A stretch of 64,000 nucleotides of DNA, from NCBI RefSeq assembly GCF_056712565.1, contig NZ_CM160072.1; one strand, 5' to 3'. The notes under the pieces were generated by a model. It worked only from the letters and a program-made list of their open reading frames with translations, did not search any database and had not been told where the DNA came from. Each line of letters starts with the position of its first letter. The stretch's first letter is position 1. The position numbers were made by a program, and so were the translations under genes. Positions 2,803 through 63,581 of this stretch are shown piece by piece.

Positions 2803-3675
2803 TCAAAAAGGTTCGAGAGTCGCAAGCAGGCTGATGATCACCAGCACTACCGCACCTATCGCCCATTCGAGTTTAGTCATCCAGACAAACCAGGGAGCCG
2901 CACGATCTTCATCCTGCCTCATGCGCGGTACAAGAACATAACGATTAGCCAGCGCGATGACCACCATAATCATCACCAGGATGGCTTTGAGCAATAAGAG
3001 TTGGCCCCAGTAAGTCGTAAGCGTGGGGGGAAATCCGGTAATCAACAATGCATTAAGCACGCCGCTTGCCAGTACGCCGATCACCGCAAAATGCCCGCAC
3101 CAGGAAAAACGCATCAGCGCCTGAATAGCCTGGTGTCGCCAACGGCCTTTGATGAGTTGCATACACCAGAGCACCGGCAGTAATCCCCCAAACCACGCCG
3201 CCGCACAGATCAGGTGAATTGCGTGATTAGTCTGATGGATTTTCGCCGTTACCCCTTCATTCAACGTCGCATGCCCGACTCCCGCCAGCAGAATAAATTG
3301 CGCGGTAGTGAGCATAAACAGCAAACGTGGCATATTCCGCGGTTGCATAAGGGCGACGATCAATGTTACGAGGGCGAGAACAATTTGCCATAACCAGACG
3401 CCACCAAACTGCGTTTGCAAAACAGCCAGCCAAATGTTTGGCGAAAATACATCTGACCATCCCGTTCCCATCAACCCGCCCTGAACGGCGAGCATTGCAG
3501 TGGCACTGATCAAACTCCAGACGGCAGCGTGCTGTTGTAAACGCAGAAAACGCTTCGTCAGCAAGCGACGAATCGTTAAGGGGGCCAGCCAGGCACCGTA
3601 CATTGCGAAGCCAAAAACCAGCATCAGCGAGGTGAAATGGATAAATCGCAGCGCGATCCAGGTAAACGCCAGCAT
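2803..3675 (-). CDS. yebZ: CopD-family inner membrane protein YebZ
   Basis: 290-aa hydrophobic polytopic ORF matching YebZ; lies between yobA and yebY on the same strand. Confidence 0.9.
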   Translation of the reverse strand: MLAFTWIALRFIHFTSLMLVFGFAMYGAWLAPLTIRRLLTKRFLRLQQHAAVWSLISATAMLAVQGGLMGTGWSDVFSPNIWLAVLQTQFGGVWLWQIVLALVTLIVALMQPRNMPRLLFMLTTAQFILLAGVGHATLNEGVTAKIHQTNHAIHLICAAAWFGGLLPVLWCMQLIKGRWRHQAIQALMRFSWCGHFAVIGVLASGVLNALLITGFPPTLTTYWGQLLLLKAILVMIMVVIALANRYVLVPRMRQDEDRAAPWFVWMTKLEWAIGAVVLVIISLLATLEPF

Positions 3676-3678
3676 GAT

Positions 3679-4053
3679 TTATTTCACACTAAAGGTGTAA
3701 TGTCCTTTCGTTTTATGCCCATCCACCGAAACAACATGCCAGTCAACGGTGTAGGTTCCGGGTTTCAGCGAATCGGCCAGTGGAACAATCAGTTGCTTTT
3801 GGTCCTGCTCATTCCGCTTCGCCGGTAATGTTTTAATATTTTCGTTTTTTGGCCCCGTGATTTTTGCACCACTGAATCCTGTTTCAACGCCTTCCGAGAA
3901 GTTTAAAGTGATTGCCTGCGGAGCTGCTGTCACTTGTGCATTTGCCGCAGGATACTGATGCGTTAAATGCGCATGTGCCCAGACGGAAGGTGTCACCAAC
4001 GAAGTGGTCAGGATTGCCAGCGCGTAGCGAAGGGAGCGTGCAGTTGAAGCCAT
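3679..4053 (-). CDS. yobA: CopC-family periplasmic copper-binding protein YobA
   Basis: 124 aa; signal peptide ending VWA followed by HAHL; matches YobA. Confidence 0.9.
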   Translation of the reverse strand: MASTARSLRYALAILTTSLVTPSVWAHAHLTHQYPAANAQVTAAPQAITLNFSEGVETGFSGAKITGPKNENIKTLPAKRNEQDQKQLIVPLADSLKPGTYTVDWHVVSVDGHKTKGHYTFSVK

Positions 4054-4191
4054 ATTATCTATTCCTTTTTGTAATAACTTTTTTACAGAGCATAACCTTG
4101 TCTAATGTCTGAGTCGAGGATCATCAATTCCGGCTTGCCATCAAGGCTCACTCTTAGTAACTTTTGCCCGCGAATGATGAGGAGATTAAGA

Positions 4192-4422
4192 ATGCTGAAG
4201 AATCTGGCTAAACTGGATCAAACAGAAATGGATAAAGTGAATGTCGATTTGGCGGCGGCAGGGGTGGCATTTAAAGAACGCTACAATATGCCGGTGATCG
4301 CTGAAGCGGTTGAACGTGAACAGCCTGAACATTTGCGCAGCTGGTTTCGCGAGCGGCTTATCGCCCACCGTTTGGCTTCGGTCAATCTGTCACGTTTACC
4401 TTACGAGCCCAAACTTAAATAA
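4192..4422 (+). CDS. holE: DNA polymerase III theta subunit
   Basis: 76-aa product [32 protein letters not shown]...; ATG 4192 preceded by GAGGAG. Track ORF starts further upstream at 4105. Confidence 0.9.
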
Positions 4423-5202: not shown

Positions 5203-7949
<2,747 letters not shown>

Positions 7950-46807: not shown

Positions 46808-47668
46808 TTAATCCTTACTTAGCGCATACACCGTCTGACCACGCAGCGTGAAGCGGCGCTCAAGGTGGCTAAAGTTTTCAGAGTGACCCGCAAACAGCAA
46901 TCCGTCGGGTTTAAGGAGCGGAACAAAGCGGCGCAAAATCTTCTGCTGGGTAGTTTGATCGAAGTAGATCATGACGTTACGACAGAAGATCGCATCAAAC
47001 GGCCCCGGCACGGTGTACTGTTTCGCCAGTAAATTCAGCGGGGCAAAATCAACATAGTTCGCCAGCTCCTGACGCACGCGTACCAGCCCTTCATGCGGTC
47101 CCGTCCCTCGCATGAAATACCGTTGCAGTTGCTGCGGCGTCAGTTTTTTCAACTCTTCATGGCGATAAATACCGCTTCTGGCTTTTTCCAGCACTTCGGT
47201 GTCGATATCGCTGGCAAACACTTTCCAGCGTCCGGGCGCGGTGCCCAATGTATCAGCCAGCGTCATCGCTATGCTGTACGGCTCTTCGCCGGTTGAAGCC
47301 GCCGCGCTCCATACGCGATACTCGCCAGAACGGCGACGTGCGTGATCCGCGAGCAGAGGAAAATGGTGTGCCTCACGGAAAAATGCCGTCAGATTCGTGG
47401 TCAGCGAATTGATAAACGCCTGCCACTCACCGCTGTGCTGATTAGATTCCAGCAAGTTCAGGTAATGACCGAAATCCGCCAGTCCCAGCGCACGCAAACG
47501 ACGAACCAGTCGGTTGTAAACCATGTCGCGTTTATGGTCAGCCAGAACGATCCCGGCTCGTTGATAGATCAATTGACTTATCCGCCGAAAATGCGCGTCG
47601 GAAAGCGCCAGGCGCTCGGTCATCTGTAACAATAAAGACGTTTGCCCACAGGGCAGAGATGAAGTCAT
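46808..47668 (-). CDS. cheR: Chemotaxis methyltransferase CheR
   Basis: 286-aa ORF matching CheR. Confidence 0.95.
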
Positions 47669-47686: not shown

Positions 47687-47913
47687 TCAGGATACCACTG
47701 GCGCAATTTGTAACTGCGCCGACTCATGTCGTGCTACTTCATGTTCTTCAAGGGTAAATACCGCCACACGCGACGAAAGATGGTCGGCCTGATTCAGTCG
47801 TTGCAAATCGTCGCGAAATGCCCAAAAGACATGCCGTTACTGCCAATCTGCAAGATCCCGCAGAGAATCAAAATTAAAAACAGCGTGGTCGAAATTCGAA
47901 TACGATTAAACAT
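47687..47913 (-). pseudogene. tap: Remnant of MCP gene tap (dipeptide chemoreceptor): internal deletion plus frameshift
   Basis: Minus strand from ATG 47913 encodes MFNRIRISTTLFLILILCGILQIGSNGMSF and stops after 40 codons (stop 47794-47796). A different frame encodes a C-terminal tail ...ADHLSSRVAVFTLEEHEVARHESAQLQIAPVVS ending at 47687-47689. Only about 230 bp remain where a 1.6-kb MCP gene is expected. Confidence 0.7.
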
Positions 47914-47958: not shown

Positions 47959-49620
47959 TCAAAATGTTTCCCAGTTTGGATCTTGTTCAGCAATTCGCAG
48001 TCGTGGCTGTGCCGGTGGTTGCTCACTGGCAGGACGGGATGGTGTTTGCGGTTTATTGGTGAGTGGGCTGGCTGCCAGACGGAACGCGGAAACCGCTTGC
48101 GTTAAACGACTCGCCTGTTCTTCCAGCGCAGCTGCGGCGGCAGCTGATTCCTGCACCAGCGATGCGTTCTGTTGCGTGACGCGATCCATTTCCGAAACCG
48201 CCAATGCGACTTGATCGATGCCACGGCTCTGTTCATCCGATGCTGATGCAATCTCGCCCATAATGTCAGTCACGCGAGTGACAGCATTGACGATATTGTT
48301 CATTGTTTCCCCAGCGCTTTCGACCAGCACCGAACCGGTATCAACGCGCGAGACGGAGTCTTCAATGAGGACTTTGATCTCTTTTGCCGCCTGTGCACTG
48401 CGACTGGCAAGATTACGCACTTCACCCGCCACCACGGCAAAACCACGGCCCTGTTCACCCGCTCGCGCGGCTTCAACAGCGGCATTCAGCGCGAGGATAT
48501 TAGTCTGGAAGGCAATACCATCGATAACGCTGATAATGTCGGCAATTTTCTTCGAACTATCGGCGATCTCATGCATCGTTTTCACTACGCCATCCACCAC
48601 TTTGCCGCCGTGCTGGGCGGTGTCGGAGGCACTTTGCGCCAGTTGCGAGGCCTGGCGGGCGTTATCGGCGTTTTGCTTCACTGTCGCGGTGAGCTGCTCC
48701 ATGCTGGCGGCAGTTTCTTCCAGCGCGGATGCCTGCTGTTCAGTACGGGAGGAAAGATCGGTGTTGCCCGCCGCAATTTCACGGGTACCGGCATAGATGG
48801 CATCTGAACCTTCGCGCACATGAGTGACGGTGTCAGTCAAAGAGCGTTGCATATGTGAAACGCTCTGCGCCAGGTCGCCCATTTCACTGCGCCCGTCAAT
48901 GGTCAGGGTATTCGCCAGGTTACCACCGGCAATTTCGCGAATATGCGCAATAATTTTTGCCAGCGGTGTAAGCAACATACGGCGAATGCCGTACCACGCC
49001 ACCAGCAGAATCAATACCACCACCAGCGCGATAACCGCCAGTTGCCACTGGGCAAATCGGTAATCATCTGCGTTGTCAGTGACGATATCGCGATACAGTT
49101 TTTCACTGCTGAGGGCGTACTGAGCAAACGCTTCGCCCATTGCATTTTGCATTCCCTGGGTTGGCTGAGCGAAATAAGCTCCAGTATTGCCATAATCAAG
49201 ATAATCAATCAGTTCAGTTAACGCTGTGTGATAGTTTTTATATTTTTCATCAATATTACGACTGGTAGCGACCATTTCAGGTAACGGTGCCATGCTTTTG
49301 AATTTTTTATAATGAGTCGCGGCCTGGGCCAATGTTTTCCTGGCACTATCGAGCAACTCAACTTTGGCATTACTTTGCTGATTGGATGAATCCATCATCA
49401 TCCGCACCGCTGAACGACTCAGGTTAATGCGCGTTTGTAGCATTAAATCCCATGTTGACGTCAGCTCGCCCTGCTGTTCCCGTAATTGATTGGAAACCAC
49501 AAAGCTCTTCTGGCTATGGTGAAGGGAAGAAAAAAACAGACTGCCGGAAATAAGCTGTAACAGTGCGAATACCCCCAGCACCATTACCAACAGCGTGACT
49601 ACGCGGATACGGTTAATCAT
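47959..49620 (-). CDS. tar: Methyl-accepting chemotaxis protein II (aspartate/maltose receptor Tar)
   Basis: Start taken at [18 protein letters not shown] (553 aa); C-terminal NWETF pentapeptide. Confidence 0.92.
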
Positions 49621-50288: not shown

Positions 50289-53180
<2,892 letters not shown>

Positions 53181-53184
<4 letters not shown>

Positions 53185-54068
53185 GCTTCCTCGGTTGTCG
53201 TCTGTTGTTGCGGATTTTTCACCGCACGCACATGCTCTTCCAGCTCAATAAACGACGGACGTTCGCTGGAATAGAGCGTTTTGCGACCAAACTCAACGGC
53301 GATAGGCGGTGCGTAACCGTTCAGATTAGAAAGCAGAGTGACTTTGACGCACTGCATCATTTTGCTGGTTTCGGCGCTTTTCTGACGTAAAACACTCGCT
53401 AATGGGGAAATAAATCCGTAAGCCAATAAAATACCGAGGAAAGTCCCCACCATCGCATGAGCGATAAGCGCCCCCAGCTCGGCGGCAGGACGATCGGCTG
53501 AACCTAACGCGTGAACGACCCCCATTACAGCCGCAACAATACCAAACGCCGGAAGTGAGTCCCCGACCAGCGCCAGACTGTTCGCCGGGACTTCTGCCTC
53601 GCTTTCGTGCGTCTCAATCTCTTCATCCATCAGAGCTTCGATTTCGAAGGTGTTCATGTGACCGCTGATAATCAGGCGCAGATAATCGACGATAAATTCA
53701 AGCATGACGCTATCCGCAAGGATGCGTGGGTAGCTGGCGAAGATCTCGCTCTCACGGGGATTTTCAATATCGCGTTCCAGCGAAAACATCCCCATCTGCC
53801 GCGATTTCGCCATCAACCGATAAAGCAGAGCCAGCAGATCCATATACATTGCTTTGGTGTATTTGGAGCGACGAAACAGCAACGGCAGCGCCTTCAGCGT
53901 GCCTTTAATCGCTTTGCCATTATTGCCGACGATAAACGACCCAATCCCTGCACCGGCAATAATCACCAGTTCAGCGGGTTGATAGAGTGCTCCAAGGCTT
54001 CCACCGGTCATCAAATAACCGCCGAAAACTGTACCGAGAACAACCAGGTAACCTAATAAGATAAGCAC
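53181..54068 (-). CDS. motA: Flagellar motor stator protein MotA
   Basis: 295-aa membrane protein; stop overlaps the motB start by 4 nt. Confidence 0.95.
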
Positions 54069-54137
54069 GACATCATCCTTCCACTGTTGACCATGACAGG
54101 ATGTTCAGTCGTCAGGCGTTAACACGCGATAGGGGCA

Positions 54138-54231
54138 AAAGAAAGCAGCGGTACATCGTTACCGCTGCTGGAATGTTTCGCCACACCGTATCAGTTAAAC
54201 AGCCTGTACTCTCTGTTCATCCAGCAGTTGT
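54138..54231 (-). ncRNA. motR: Candidate MotR-like sRNA from the motA leader (ends approximate)
   Basis: Sigma-28 promoter at 54238-54264 inside flhC, followed about 90 nt downstream by hairpin GCAGCGGTA...TACCGCTGC plus TTTCTTTTG (54138-54169), upstream of the motA start. Confidence 0.45.
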
Positions 54232-54773
54232 GGGATAATATCGGCAGGATTCTGGGAAAGTTTACGTCTTTTTACTGCCCGGGATGGCGGCTGACATAAG
54301 CTGCAGGCAAAGCTGCCAACAGGCTGGTGAGCATGGGTAATAAAATTGCCGCCGCAGCAGTTGCAGCTGGAAAGTTGCAGTAATCCACTTTCAACAAACC
54401 GCACCAATGTCCAGGCACGGGTTAATGCCAGCAGCGGTCCTTCTTCTGCTTGCGGGCACTGTTCAAGGTATAAACGGTAGGCTTTGATCACCGCATCGAC
54501 GCCATTACACAAGCCAGTTTTCAGTAAAAACTGCCATGCATTACAGAACATCGAAGCATGAACGTTTTGTTCCCAGGTCATAAACCAGTCGGTTGAAAAT
54601 GGCAGCATGCCTTTCGGCGGTGGGCTTCCGCGCAGTTCTTTATAGAGTTTTATCAGACGTCCGCGACTTAACTGTGTTTCGCTTTCCAGCATCTGCAAAC
54701 GAGCGCCCAGGGTGATCAATTCCATTGCCAGCTGAATATCCCGCGCTTCCTGAACAATGCTTTTTTCACTCAT
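54195..54773 (-). CDS. flhC: Flagellar master regulator subunit FlhC
   Basis: 192 aa; C-terminal zinc-binding cysteines (CNCCGGNF...CSLC). Confidence 0.95.
54238..54264 (-). promoter_or_regulatory. Sigma-28 promoter embedded in the 3' end of flhC
   Basis: Minus strand TAAACTTT-N11-GCCGATAT, one mismatch in each element from the sigma-28 consensus. Confidence 0.7.
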
Positions 54774-54775
54774 GA

Positions 54776-55126
54776 TCAGGCCCTTTTCTTGCGCAGCGCT
54801 TCTTCAGGCTGATTAACATCATTCAGCAAGCGTGTTGAGAGCATGATGCCGGTATGAATTTGCTGGAGATCGTCAACGCGGGAATCTTGCGTCAACTGAG
54901 TAATCGTCTGGTGGCTGTCAAAACGGAAGTGACAAACCAGTTGATTGGTTTCTGCCAGCTTAACCATTTGCGGAAGAGTCAGTGCCGCTAACGTTGTCGC
55001 CATTTCTTCATTTATGCCGAGACGAAACATAGCGGACGCTTTGTCCTGAACAATCAGACGCTGTGCAAGTAGTAAATATGACAAGTTGATGTCATAAATG
55101 TGTTTCAGCAACTCGGAGGTATGCAT
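54776..55126 (-). CDS. flhD: Flagellar master regulator subunit FlhD
   Basis: Start taken at [18 protein letters not shown] (116 aa). Confidence 0.95.
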
Positions 55127-55384
55127 TATTCCCACCCAGAATAACCAACTTTATTTTTATGCGGTCTCACCGCACCCCGTGATGTCGCCGGGAAGCCCCG
55201 GTAAAAAATAATTAGCATTAGAATAGTTGCGATAAGCTGCAATAAGCAGACCCACCTTTTTGGTTTAATAAGTCCTTACAAATAGAAGGGGGTCTTTACA
55301 CTTATCTAAGATTTTTCCTAAATCGACGCAACTGTACTCGTCACTACACGCACATACAACGGAGGGGGGCTGCGATTTTCAATA

Positions 55385-55406
55385 ATGTGTGATGCAGATC
55401 ACACAA
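55385..55406. promoter_or_regulatory. CRP binding site in the flhDC regulatory region
   Basis: TGTGA-TGCAGA-TCACA, perfect CRP half-sites with 6-bp spacer, about 265 bp upstream of the flhD start. Confidence 0.8.
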
Positions 55407-55905
55407 AACGCTCAATTACTTAACATAAATGTATAAGTCATACTTTTGTTTTGGGTGTATTTCAATCTGTTAAAAAATTTTTCGCTACACTGGCAAGCAA
55501 AAATGAAACAGGAATAATCGAAATGGGATGTTGCGCACAGTTAAAATAACTCACCGTAAATAATCATCTGCTATAAATAATCGCTTTAATGCAATACCAG
55601 ATAAGCCATTTTTAAACAAACACTTACCGCACAACAAACTAATTAACTACAAAGAAAGGCAACAATCAACCCAATGTTAATAAAATGTTTTACATATATT
55701 AACCACTTGTTCAATATGGGAAATCAGTACATTATTTTCTTATAAATACAGTTGAAATCATATGATAACCAAGAGCAATTGATTAATTGTATTTACTAAT
55801 GACCAGACTAATATTTACCTGTTTAACTGAGTTGGGATTGCGTCGTTTCTCCATTAGGAGTAAAGCTTTAATGTCACCTGAAGTTCACAGAATAAGGAAC
55901 AGGTT

Positions 55906-56334
55906 ATGAGCTATAGCAATATTCTTGTCGCCGTTGCGGTTACACCGGAAAGTCAGCAACTGCTGGCAAAAGCGGTATCTATCGCCAGGCCAGTAAAGGG
56001 ACACATCAGTTTAATTACTCTCGCTTCCGACCCGGAAATGTACAATCAATTAGCTGCGCCGATGCTTGAAGATTTACGCAATGTGATGCAGGAAGAAACG
56101 CAAAGCTTTCTTGATAAGTTAATTCAGGATGCGGGGTATCCCGTTGACAAGACGTTTATTGCCTACGGTGAGTTAAGCGAACATATTCTGGAAGTTTGTC
56201 GCAAACATCATTTCGATTTGGTGATTTGCGGTAATCACAATCACAGTTTCTTTTCGCGAGCATCCTGCTCGGCGAAAAGAGTGATTACCTCAAGTGAGGT
56301 CGATGTGCTGTTAGTTCCACTTACGGGAGATTAA
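55906..56334 (+). CDS. uspC: Universal stress protein C
   Basis: 142-aa ORF matching UspC. Confidence 0.9.
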   Translation: MSYSNILVAVAVTPESQQLLAKAVSIARPVKGHISLITLASDPEMYNQLAAPMLEDLRNVMQEETQSFLDKLIQDAGYPVDKTFIAYGELSEHILEVCRKHHFDLVICGNHNHSFFSRASCSAKRVITSSEVDVLLVPLTGD

Positions 56335-56340
56335 CCGCAC

Positions 56341-59696
<3,356 letters not shown>

Positions 59697-61291: not shown

Positions 61292-62281
61292 TTACTTACC
61301 GCCTAAACCTTTTTTCTCCAGTTCTTCTTTAAAGTTGTCACGCGTGATCAGCACCACGTCGGTAACTTCGGTGAATTTGGTCGGTTCAACACCTTTTGCA
61401 ACCCAGTTGTAAAGCATTTCGCTGGACTTATAACCATGTACGTCCGGGCTTGGCAGCAGGGAACCGTAGAAGCCGGTTGCCTGTGCCTTAGACAGTTCAC
61501 TCACCGCATCCACACCGTTAATACCGATACCGATGATATCGCTCGCTTTAAAGCCCTGACCTTCCGTCGCGCGTACGCCGCCCAGCACGGTGCTGTCGTT
61601 CATACCGACAATCAGCCAATGTTTAACTTCCGGATGTTGAACCAGCATTGAGTTGGCAGCGTCAAATGCCCCCGGGATGTCGTTAGATTTGGTAGGTACC
61701 TGATAAATTTGTTTTTCCGGGAATCCTGCAGCTTTCAGCGCATCCATAGACCCCGTAGTACGGCGACGAGCCGTATCCAGTTCGTTGGAGGTAATCGCCA
61801 TCACCGCGCTTTCTTTGACATCCCAGCCACGTTTCTGCATCTCTTTATACAGTTCCTGGCCCTGACGTTCGCCAATTTTGGTCGCAGCCATCATCACCAG
61901 CGGAACGGTATCCATTGGCTTACCTTTGGCGTTAACAAACTGGTCATCCACGGCAATGACTTTCATATCGTAGCCACGCGCTTTCGCCACGATGGCAGAG
62001 CCGAGTTTCGGGTCCGGAGTACAAATAACGAAACCTTTCGCGCCACTGGCAGCCAGGCTGTCGATAGCGTTCAATGTTTTTTCGCCATCCGGCACGGCAA
62101 TCTTAATAACTTCAAACCCTAAATCCTTCCCGGCTTTATCGGCAAACTTCCATTCGGTCTGGAACCACGGCTCTTCCGGTTGCTTCACCAGGAAACCGAG
62201 CTTCAGGTTCTCCGCCATAGCGGATTGTGACATAACGGCTGCCAGACCAATGGCTGCCAGGGCTTTAGTAAATTTGTGCAT
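61292..62281 (-). CDS. araF: L-arabinose-binding periplasmic protein
   Basis: Start taken at MHKFTKALAAIGLAAVMSQSAMA (329 aa) with signal peptide. Confidence 0.95.
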   Translation of the reverse strand: MHKFTKALAAIGLAAVMSQSAMAENLKLGFLVKQPEEPWFQTEWKFADKAGKDLGFEVIKIAVPDGEKTLNAIDSLAASGAKGFVICTPDPKLGSAIVAKARGYDMKVIAVDDQFVNAKGKPMDTVPLVMMAATKIGERQGQELYKEMQKRGWDVKESAVMAITSNELDTARRRTTGSMDALKAAGFPEKQIYQVPTKSNDIPGAFDAANSMLVQHPEVKHWLIVGMNDSTVLGGVRATEGQGFKASDIIGIGINGVDAVSELSKAQATGFYGSLLPSPDVHGYKSSEMLYNWVAKGVEPTKFTEVTDVVLITRDNFKEELEKKGLGGK

Positions 62282-63077
62282 GGTTCTCTCCAGCTTTAGT
62301 GTCGTTTTGTGTAGGGCAAAAACGAATGACATTCGTTAAATTAATCGGAAAACAAAGCATTACCTTTTAACTAAAAGATAAGTGACTGTGTTGACATAGT
62401 TTTAGCGAGAAATTAATTCTCCATAGGAGAGCAATATCACATCGCAGAATTACAGTGAAAACGTGCATAAATTTAGCGGGAAAAGACATAAGGAAAAGCG
62501 AATTTGTCAGACAAATTATCGAGTGCACAGCAGAATAATCCATAAGATTAGCCTGGAAGTCCTTGTTGTCTTTGGTACCCATGCGGGATGTCTTCTTTTT
62601 AACCAGTCAATAGGCCTCATTACCTGGCGTTGAGTTTTTGCAATGGTGTAATAACCGCAACTTAAAGATGTGGAAAATGCGCGTCATTCATTTCGCCATT
62701 AATTATCACTGTACTCATTAATTAACAGAACACGTATAATGAGAGCTATATCGCAAAAATGAAAAAACGTTTTATAAAATCATTGCTTCATCATGAATTC
62801 AAATTCATCGATTAATATCAACAAGATACAAAAAGCACCATCATTAAAATTCATTACAGTTACATTGATTTCATCAATGAAATGTAAAAATATATAAACT
62901 TGATGATTTAAGCATTTTCTTATACCCGTTCAGACGTTATTCTTATTTCAGATCATCGTCAGAATTGACTCCACGATCACATTTCGGACCGGCAGAAAGG
63001 AATTATTCTGCAAACAGTAATTATGGTGTTTTGATTTATCTTGCACCTCTCCACTTCTGGATATAAGGATATTAGGT

Positions 63078-63581
63078 ATGGCAACCGCTGGAATGCTTCT
63101 CAAACTCAACTCTCAAATGAACCGCGAGTTTTACGCATCCAATCTCTACCTTCACCTGAGTAACTGGTGTTCTGAACAGAGTCTGAACGGCACCGCCACT
63201 TTCCTTCGCGCCCAGGCACAGAGTAATGTGACCCAAATGATGCGCATGTTTAACTTTATGAAGAGTGTCGGCGCTACCCCCATCGTTAAAGCCATTGATG
63301 TTCCCGGTGAAAAACTGAACTCTCTGGAAGAACTGTTCCAAAAAACGATGGAAGAATACGAGCAACGTTCAAGCACGCTGGCGCAGTTAGCCGATGAAGC
63401 GAAAGAACTGAATGATGATTCAACCGTCAATTTCCTGCGCGATCTGGAAAAAGAACAGCAGCATGATGGCCTGTTACTGCAAACCATTCTTGATGAAGTG
63501 CGCAGTGCGAAACTTGCTGGTATGTGTCCTGTGCAGACCGACCAACATGTTCTGAATGTCGTGTCGCATCAGCTACATTGA
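63078..63581 (+). CDS. ftnB: Ferritin-like protein FtnB
   Basis: 167-aa ORF matching FtnB. Confidence 0.9.

Follow-up and report, generated by a model that had tools for sequence, protein, structure and literature searches.

The 779-bp region between flhD and uspC in the DNA analysed here is very probably the native, uninterrupted divergent control region of flhDC and uspC in the lineage of the Escherichia coli type strain (ATCC 11775/DSM 30083, phylogroup B2). A reading of the sequence together with the listing of open reading frames (ORFs) places this region exactly at positions 55127-55905 of the window, by which we mean the whole 64-kb stretch under analysis. It is bounded by the flhD start codon on the minus strand (55126-55124) and the uspC ATG on the plus strand (55906). 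This is a textbook example of a regulatory region, in its most common form, and represents biology that is already known. For the strain, this reading means that it carries a standard control region for the flagellar master switch and is not an IS-activated motility variant.

The locus reads motB, motA, flhC and flhD on the minus strand, then uspC on the plus strand and, again on the minus strand, otsA/otsB; the same neighbours (motBA-flhCD / uspC-otsAB) are annotated in a near-identical RefSeq record. The flhC gene (54195-54773, minus strand; 192 aa) and the flhD gene (54776-55126, minus strand; 116 aa) are each supported by an ORF and by the annotation of that record, and both encode proteins identical to those of K-12; at the nucleotide level, flhD carries a single synonymous difference from K-12, at 55057. 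The uspC gene, divergent from flhD (55906-56334, plus strand; 142 aa), is supported in the same two ways and has four amino-acid differences from its K-12 counterpart. The initial annotation had described the intergenic region as AT-rich, and its composition bears this out. G+C amounts to 35.2% against 50.6% for the 64-kb window, and just 0.36% of the 779-bp windows across the 64 kb are equally low. The distal part, at 55411-55905, falls to 30.7% G+C. A second strongly AT-rich stretch, at 62114-63372, corresponds to the long araF-ftnB intergenic region and contains the lowest-G+C 779-bp window of the 64 kb (0.339).

The affiliation of the DNA follows from its match to NZ_CP033092.2, the record of E. 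coli DSM 30083 (= ATCC 11775, the species type strain). Positions 55127-55905 are 100% identical to this record, and the whole window is the reverse complement of its positions 2115599-2179598 with six mismatches, at 5669, 6853, 11323, 14549, 27417 and 47144. By this match, the window is from the E. coli type-strain lineage (ATCC 11775, phylogroup B2) and not from K-12. The type strain is recorded as serotype O1:K1:H7 and phylogroup B2, and is listed as motile, an entry that stems from the genus description and not from an assay of the strain (PMC4334874).

Comparison with K-12 provides the most direct view of what an insertion at this locus looks like. In K-12, motility is activated by IS elements or point mutations upstream of flhDC, and these vary between stocks (PMC11237407; PMC5100188), with insertions reported up to 476 bp upstream from where flhDC starts and an IS5 hot spot at the TTAA located at -99 to -96 from that start (PMC5100188). 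The MG1655 spacer is 1,555 bp long and, as read from its junctions, carries IS1H (768 bp) plus an 8-bp duplication of cataaatg; the window has neither. The comparison with MG1655 suggested along with the initial annotation gave a collinear result: once IS1H and one duplicate are removed, the two spacers align at 779 versus 779 bp, with 39 substitutions and 0 indels. The sequenced MG1655 and the K-12 stocks with IS1 or IS5 thus share with the window the same locus and the same targets, which in the window are unoccupied (55420-55431): the IS5 hot-spot TTAA at 55420-55423 and the IS1H target cataaatg at 55424-55431 adjoin each other, and each is present in a single copy.

Searches within the interval agree with this comparison. 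The initial annotation had reported an uninterrupted region with no transposase ORF or terminal inverted repeats and had named IS ends or a transposase fragment as contrary evidence; neither was found in 55127-55905. An ORF search of the interval allowing ATG, GTG or TTG starts returned nothing longer than 40 aa, and the longest stop-free stretch spans 49 codons. No direct or inverted repeats of at least 12 bp occur in 54900-56100; only trivial 9-mer palindromes were seen. The MG1655 IS1H sequence gave no match to the interval in a blastn search, InsA and InsB gave none in a tblastn search, and the 64-kb window holds no second copy of the interval.

The arrangement and its dimensions extend well beyond E. 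coli. A degenerate search pattern for the flhD 5'-coding sequence gave 19 loci. The divergent flhD/uspC arrangement is also present in 16 other enterobacterial species of the genera Escherichia, Citrobacter, Salmonella, Kosakonia, Phytobacter and Pseudenterobacter, and in 15 of these the spacer measures 776-794 bp with 35-37% G+C; in E. albertii it measures 779 bp. On this comparison, about 780 bp is the ancestral spacer length. The wild-type, insertion-free configuration proposed initially is therefore upheld: the interval has the same length as K-12 minus IS1H and as the uropathogenic strain CFT073, its length falls in the range of 15 of the 16 other species, and its insertion targets are unoccupied. 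The lone longer spacer, 1,001 bp in C. amalonaticus S646, owes its length mainly to a 207-bp GC-rich insert near uspC, in which no obvious terminal inverted repeats were seen.

The frequency of the insertion-free state was estimated among 5,426 complete E. coli genomes. The resulting counts are bounds, since the search merges pieces separated by as much as 500 bp plus half the query length (which hides IS1-sized insertions in the longest query) and since insertions close to a query end still leave 80% coverage: a 780-nt query spanning the whole interval matched 5,421 genomes, with at least 80% of it in one place in 5,271; a 201-nt query centred on the K-12 hot spot matched 5,410, with 5,265 at this coverage; and a 361-nt query further upstream matched 5,420, with 5,343 at this coverage. 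The uninterrupted spacer is the species norm, found in some 95% or more of the complete genomes, so the absence of an insertion is not a distinguishing feature of the strain.

The genomes with an interruption include several laboratory derivatives of K-12. Two E. coli strains of human clinical origin, TUM13881 (locus 3552-4304) and g1-11 (locus 3050-3762), also carry IS1 upstream of flhD. Both have lost uspC, otsBA, araFGH and more, with the loss extending as far as yecH in the former and ftnA in the latter. They represent naturally occurring deletions associated with IS1 at the flhDC hot spot; the window, in contrast, keeps the full ancestral arrangement. Chlorine-tolerant wastewater E. coli carry IS30 at the uspC-flhDC locus, and the portion of Table 1 of that study covered here lists no IS30 at the locus among isolates and genomes of the human and animal source groups (PMC5007776). 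The wastewater uspC-IS30-flhDC marker strains share the intergenic locus with the window but carry IS30 there, whereas the window is without insertion.

Two independent routes place the flhDC transcription start at 55324. The 3' end of the K-12 antisense RNA AsflhD, annotated in MG1655 (b4839) at 1,978,176-1,978,395, maps to this position from 1,978,395, and counting from this start puts the published hot spot of IS5 (-99 to -96) precisely on the TTAA at 55420-55423. A -10 hexamer, TACAGT, can be read on the minus strand at 55331-55336, 7 nt ahead of the G at 55324 where transcription starts, and is conserved across genera. It is preceded, across a 17-bp spacer, by a -35 hexamer, TTGTAT, at 55354-55359 (minus strand), where 55352-55359 is invariant in 17 aligned enterobacterial sequences. 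A generic promoter scan scored this pair below threshold and did not flag it, as expected for the weak hexamers of an activator-dependent promoter. The generic promoter and terminator scan did report two plus-strand promoter-like sites, at 55490-55518 and 55518-55547, which we set aside since their number is not above the shuffled expectation of 2.9.

The start at 55324 defines a 5' untranslated leader of 198 nt (55127-55324, minus strand) that differs from K-12 by five substitutions and 0 indels. In the 17-sequence alignment, conservation is 87-90% over the 80 nt nearest the ATG (55127-55206) and almost complete at 55297-55324. Small RNAs and CsrA act on the flhDC leader in K-12. Post-transcriptional control through AsflhD and RNase III has also been described for the K-12 leader, and AsflhD is the complement of the leader together with the initial 22 nt of flhD (PMC9600491). 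A putative 220-nt counterpart of AsflhD occupies 55105-55324 on the plus strand, a position taken from the b4839 annotation and Table 1 of PMC9600491; AsflhD is without an Rfam family, and the counterpart is placed solely by collinearity with K-12. The 60 nt upstream of it differ from K-12 by one base. An Rfam scan of 53000-57000 with E-values up to 1 returned no match.

Conserved blocks in the 17-sequence alignment comprise the ATG-proximal leader, the start region at 55297-55338, the -10 and -35 hexamers and the CRP half-sites discussed below. The start region includes an RcsAB-box-like sequence, TAAGATTTTTCCTA, at 55307-55320 (+5 to +18). Positions 55307-55321 are invariant in 17 of 17 aligned sequences, and TAAGATTTTTCCTAA is the invariant form of the element within the conserved start region. 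We take these coordinates to be those of the repressor site for RcsB/RcsAB defined by Francez-Charlot in 2003. Their placement is compatible with the location of an RcsAB box near the flhDC promoter (PMC5829831).

The leader also contains a TTG-initiated ORF of 38 codons (55126-55242, minus strand), whose TAA stop overlaps the flhD ATG (TAATG). We rejected this ORF as a translationally coupled upstream ORF. In E. albertii and one other Escherichia its frame runs for 9-13 codons before it closes, and Salmonella, Kosakonia, Phytobacter and Pseudenterobacter have no stop at the overlapping codon. The apparent conservation of its peptide arises because the leader is conserved at the nucleotide level.

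Upstream of the promoter hexamers lies a predicted cAMP-CRP site, TGTGATGCAGATCACA, at 55388-55403. The site has 6-bp perfect inverted arms (TGTGAT/ATCACA) and is centred at -71.5, a class I position. The initial annotation had singled it out as a perfect CRP site, and this description is well borne out: it is the sole TGTGA-N6-TCACA in the 64 kb, where 0.09 would be expected by chance. By itself such a match is only suggestive; position and conservation are what settle the predicted assignment to CRP. Among the other enterobacterial species, all 18 whose upstream sequence was long enough carry a perfect TGTGA-N6-TCACA, located 276-291 nt ahead of the flhD ATG, and the 6-bp spacer between the half-sites varies.

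K-12 departs from this pattern. It has a C at the equivalent of 55388, giving a promoter-proximal half-site of CGTGA instead of TGTGA. A 60-mer around the site is found in exactly the window version in 3,837 of 5,361 matching genomes, and in exactly the K-12 version in 401. From these distributions, the perfect CRP core is the ancestral, majority allele, and the K-12 CGTGA is a minority, derived and weaker-looking one. K-12 is atypical at this locus twice over, with many of its stocks carrying an insertion that natural isolates lack and with a derived half-site, and both oddities matter when the flhDC promoters of natural isolates are judged against K-12.

The closest K-12 comparison is provided by IS-free K-12, represented by BW25113 and by MG1655 minus IS1H. 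It shares with the window the flanking genes and their orientation, a 779-bp spacer without indels, the promoter hexamers, the start region, the layout of the leader and identical FlhD and FlhC proteins. It differs by the 39 substitutions (5% of the 779 positions, for 95% identity), five of them in the leader, by the CGTGA half-site, and by lacking a palindrome, GTTAAAATAAC, that the window keeps through a T at 55542.

This palindrome lies within a putative 29-bp operator position for PapX and FocX, two fimbria-linked repressors, at 55531-55559. The 29-mer at these coordinates is presumably the exact PapX site. Its centre lies 221 bp upstream from where flhDC starts, in keeping with the site in CFT073, which is centred about 220 bp upstream of that start (PMC6246914). 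From 55525 to 55565, the window and CFT073 are identical, whereas K-12 has a C at 55542 that breaks the GTTAAAATAAC palindrome. Any papX or focX gene of this genome would lie beyond the 64 kb. CFT073, a uropathogenic strain of phylogroup B2, resembles the window more generally: it has the same 779-bp spacer with just five base differences, the identical sequence where PapX binding is placed, and the tap remnant described below.

The locus is a known insertion hot spot at which natural strains carry IS1 with adjacent deletions and wastewater strains carry IS30, and it can be asked whether the interval conceals a degraded mobile element or an excision scar and so is not truly ancestral. We consider this highly improbable. 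The length of 779 bp is that of K-12 without its IS, of CFT073 and of E. albertii, and falls within the range of 15 of 16 species; both targets are single-copy, and the interval shows none of the repeats, IS1 or InsAB similarity or second copy in the window that were looked for. A mobile repeat would be multi-copy, whereas the interval occupies a median of one place and a maximum of two across 5,421 E. coli genomes, with only 2 places on plasmids, which argues against mobile DNA. Much the same holds for the idea that TGTGA-N6-TCACA arose by chance as a palindrome in AT-rich DNA and has no function in CRP binding. At least one match does turn up in 9 of 100 shuffles of the window, but chance is hard to credit as the explanation for a site that lies exactly at -71.5 from an independently mapped start and whose half-sites stay invariant in 18 of 18 species while the spacer between them varies. 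CRP is, moreover, the reported activator among the regulators listed as binding the flhDC upstream region (PMC5493358). We accordingly retain the reading of a native, uninterrupted control region with a predicted CRP site, and none of the evidence speaks against its structural part.

How strongly this region holds flhDC down is a separate matter. The initial annotation had called the configuration tightly regulated, a wording carried over from K-12 and against which the perfect CRP half-site argues somewhat, as TGTGA in place of the K-12 CGTGA should favour activation, if it matters at all. Fahrner and Berg reportedly found in 2015 that flhDC of poorly motile K-12 is stimulated when single bases are changed in the region that binds cAMP-CRP; the rule that an IS-free region implies a poorly motile, tightly repressed strain may for this reason not transfer from K-12 to the window allele. 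An extension of this argument holds that the region, though intact, is not tight in the way meant for K-12. The T at 55388 and the other 38 substitutions would then make for a better-activated flhDC promoter than that of IS-free K-12, whose poor motility would stem partly from a K-12-specific weak CRP site and would not be the wild-type condition. We regard this as possible, if somewhat unlikely. It would fit the report of Fahrner and Berg, the half-site difference itself, the predominance of the window 60-mer over the K-12 60-mer among E. coli genomes, the presence of TGTGA in 18 of 18 other species and the record of the type strain as motile and of serotype H7 (PMC4334874). On the other hand, the activity of both alleles is predicted from sequence, the motile entry derives from the genus description, and B2 strains carry extra repressors such as PapX/FocX, whose putative operator the window retains.

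By analogy with K-12 and uropathogenic E. coli, the native control region would work through layered inputs. At its class I position, cAMP-CRP would recruit RNA polymerase to an otherwise poor sigma-70 promoter. RcsB or RcsAB at +5 to +18, together with upstream repressors and nucleoid proteins, would hold expression down, and the long leader would serve as a substrate for control by small RNAs, CsrA and AsflhD/RNase III. In some K-12 laboratory stocks, IS1 or IS5 in the upstream stretch would relieve this repression at a cost in acid-shock survival.

The AT-rich distal region (502 bp, 55404-55905) is where the upstream repressor and nucleoid-protein sites, the K-12 IS zone and the uspC promoter and ribosome-binding site are assigned; individual OmpR, LrhA, H-NS, Fur and IHF sites are treated here as part of this region as a whole. 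Outside Escherichia, the distal ~400 bp retain little recognizable sequence similarity, with a gapped identity of 0.49-0.57 versus 0.50 for shuffled sequence and an ungapped identity of mostly 0.2-0.45 per 100-nt bin versus 0.29 for random sequence. Even within Escherichia, the distal region contains small indels that net out. The CRP site and the uspC ATG nonetheless lie 496-504 bp apart in 16 of 16 other species, compared with 502 bp in the window, a conservation of length that was judged from flhD-uspC alone.

These measurements raise the suggestion, which we put forward tentatively and think unlikely to hold, that what is constrained in the ~500-bp stretch from the CRP site to uspC may be its length and AT-richness and not its sequence. 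If so, the upstream DNA would act as a length- or topology-dependent silencer, for example through a nucleoid-protein filament or a loop joining the uspC and flhDC promoters, and this would explain the activation of flhDC by any large insertion regardless of its sequence. The conserved length, if upheld, would provide a testable handle on whether flhDC is controlled through the topology of its entire upstream region.

Elsewhere in the window, the mismatch at 5669 lies in exoX (5203-5865, plus strand), where the window reads TGG (Trp) and the RefSeq record TGA. The gene is intact in the window, whereas the RefSeq record flags it as a pseudogene with an internal stop, and the discrepancy reflects either a difference between stocks or an error made in sequencing one of them. 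All that is left of the tap gene is a frameshifted remnant of 152 bp (47762-47913, minus strand), flanked by tar (47959-49620) and cheR (46808-47668). Loss of tap is typical of uropathogenic and B2 strains. The near-identical RefSeq record labels the remnant a pseudogene, and CFT073 carries the same one.
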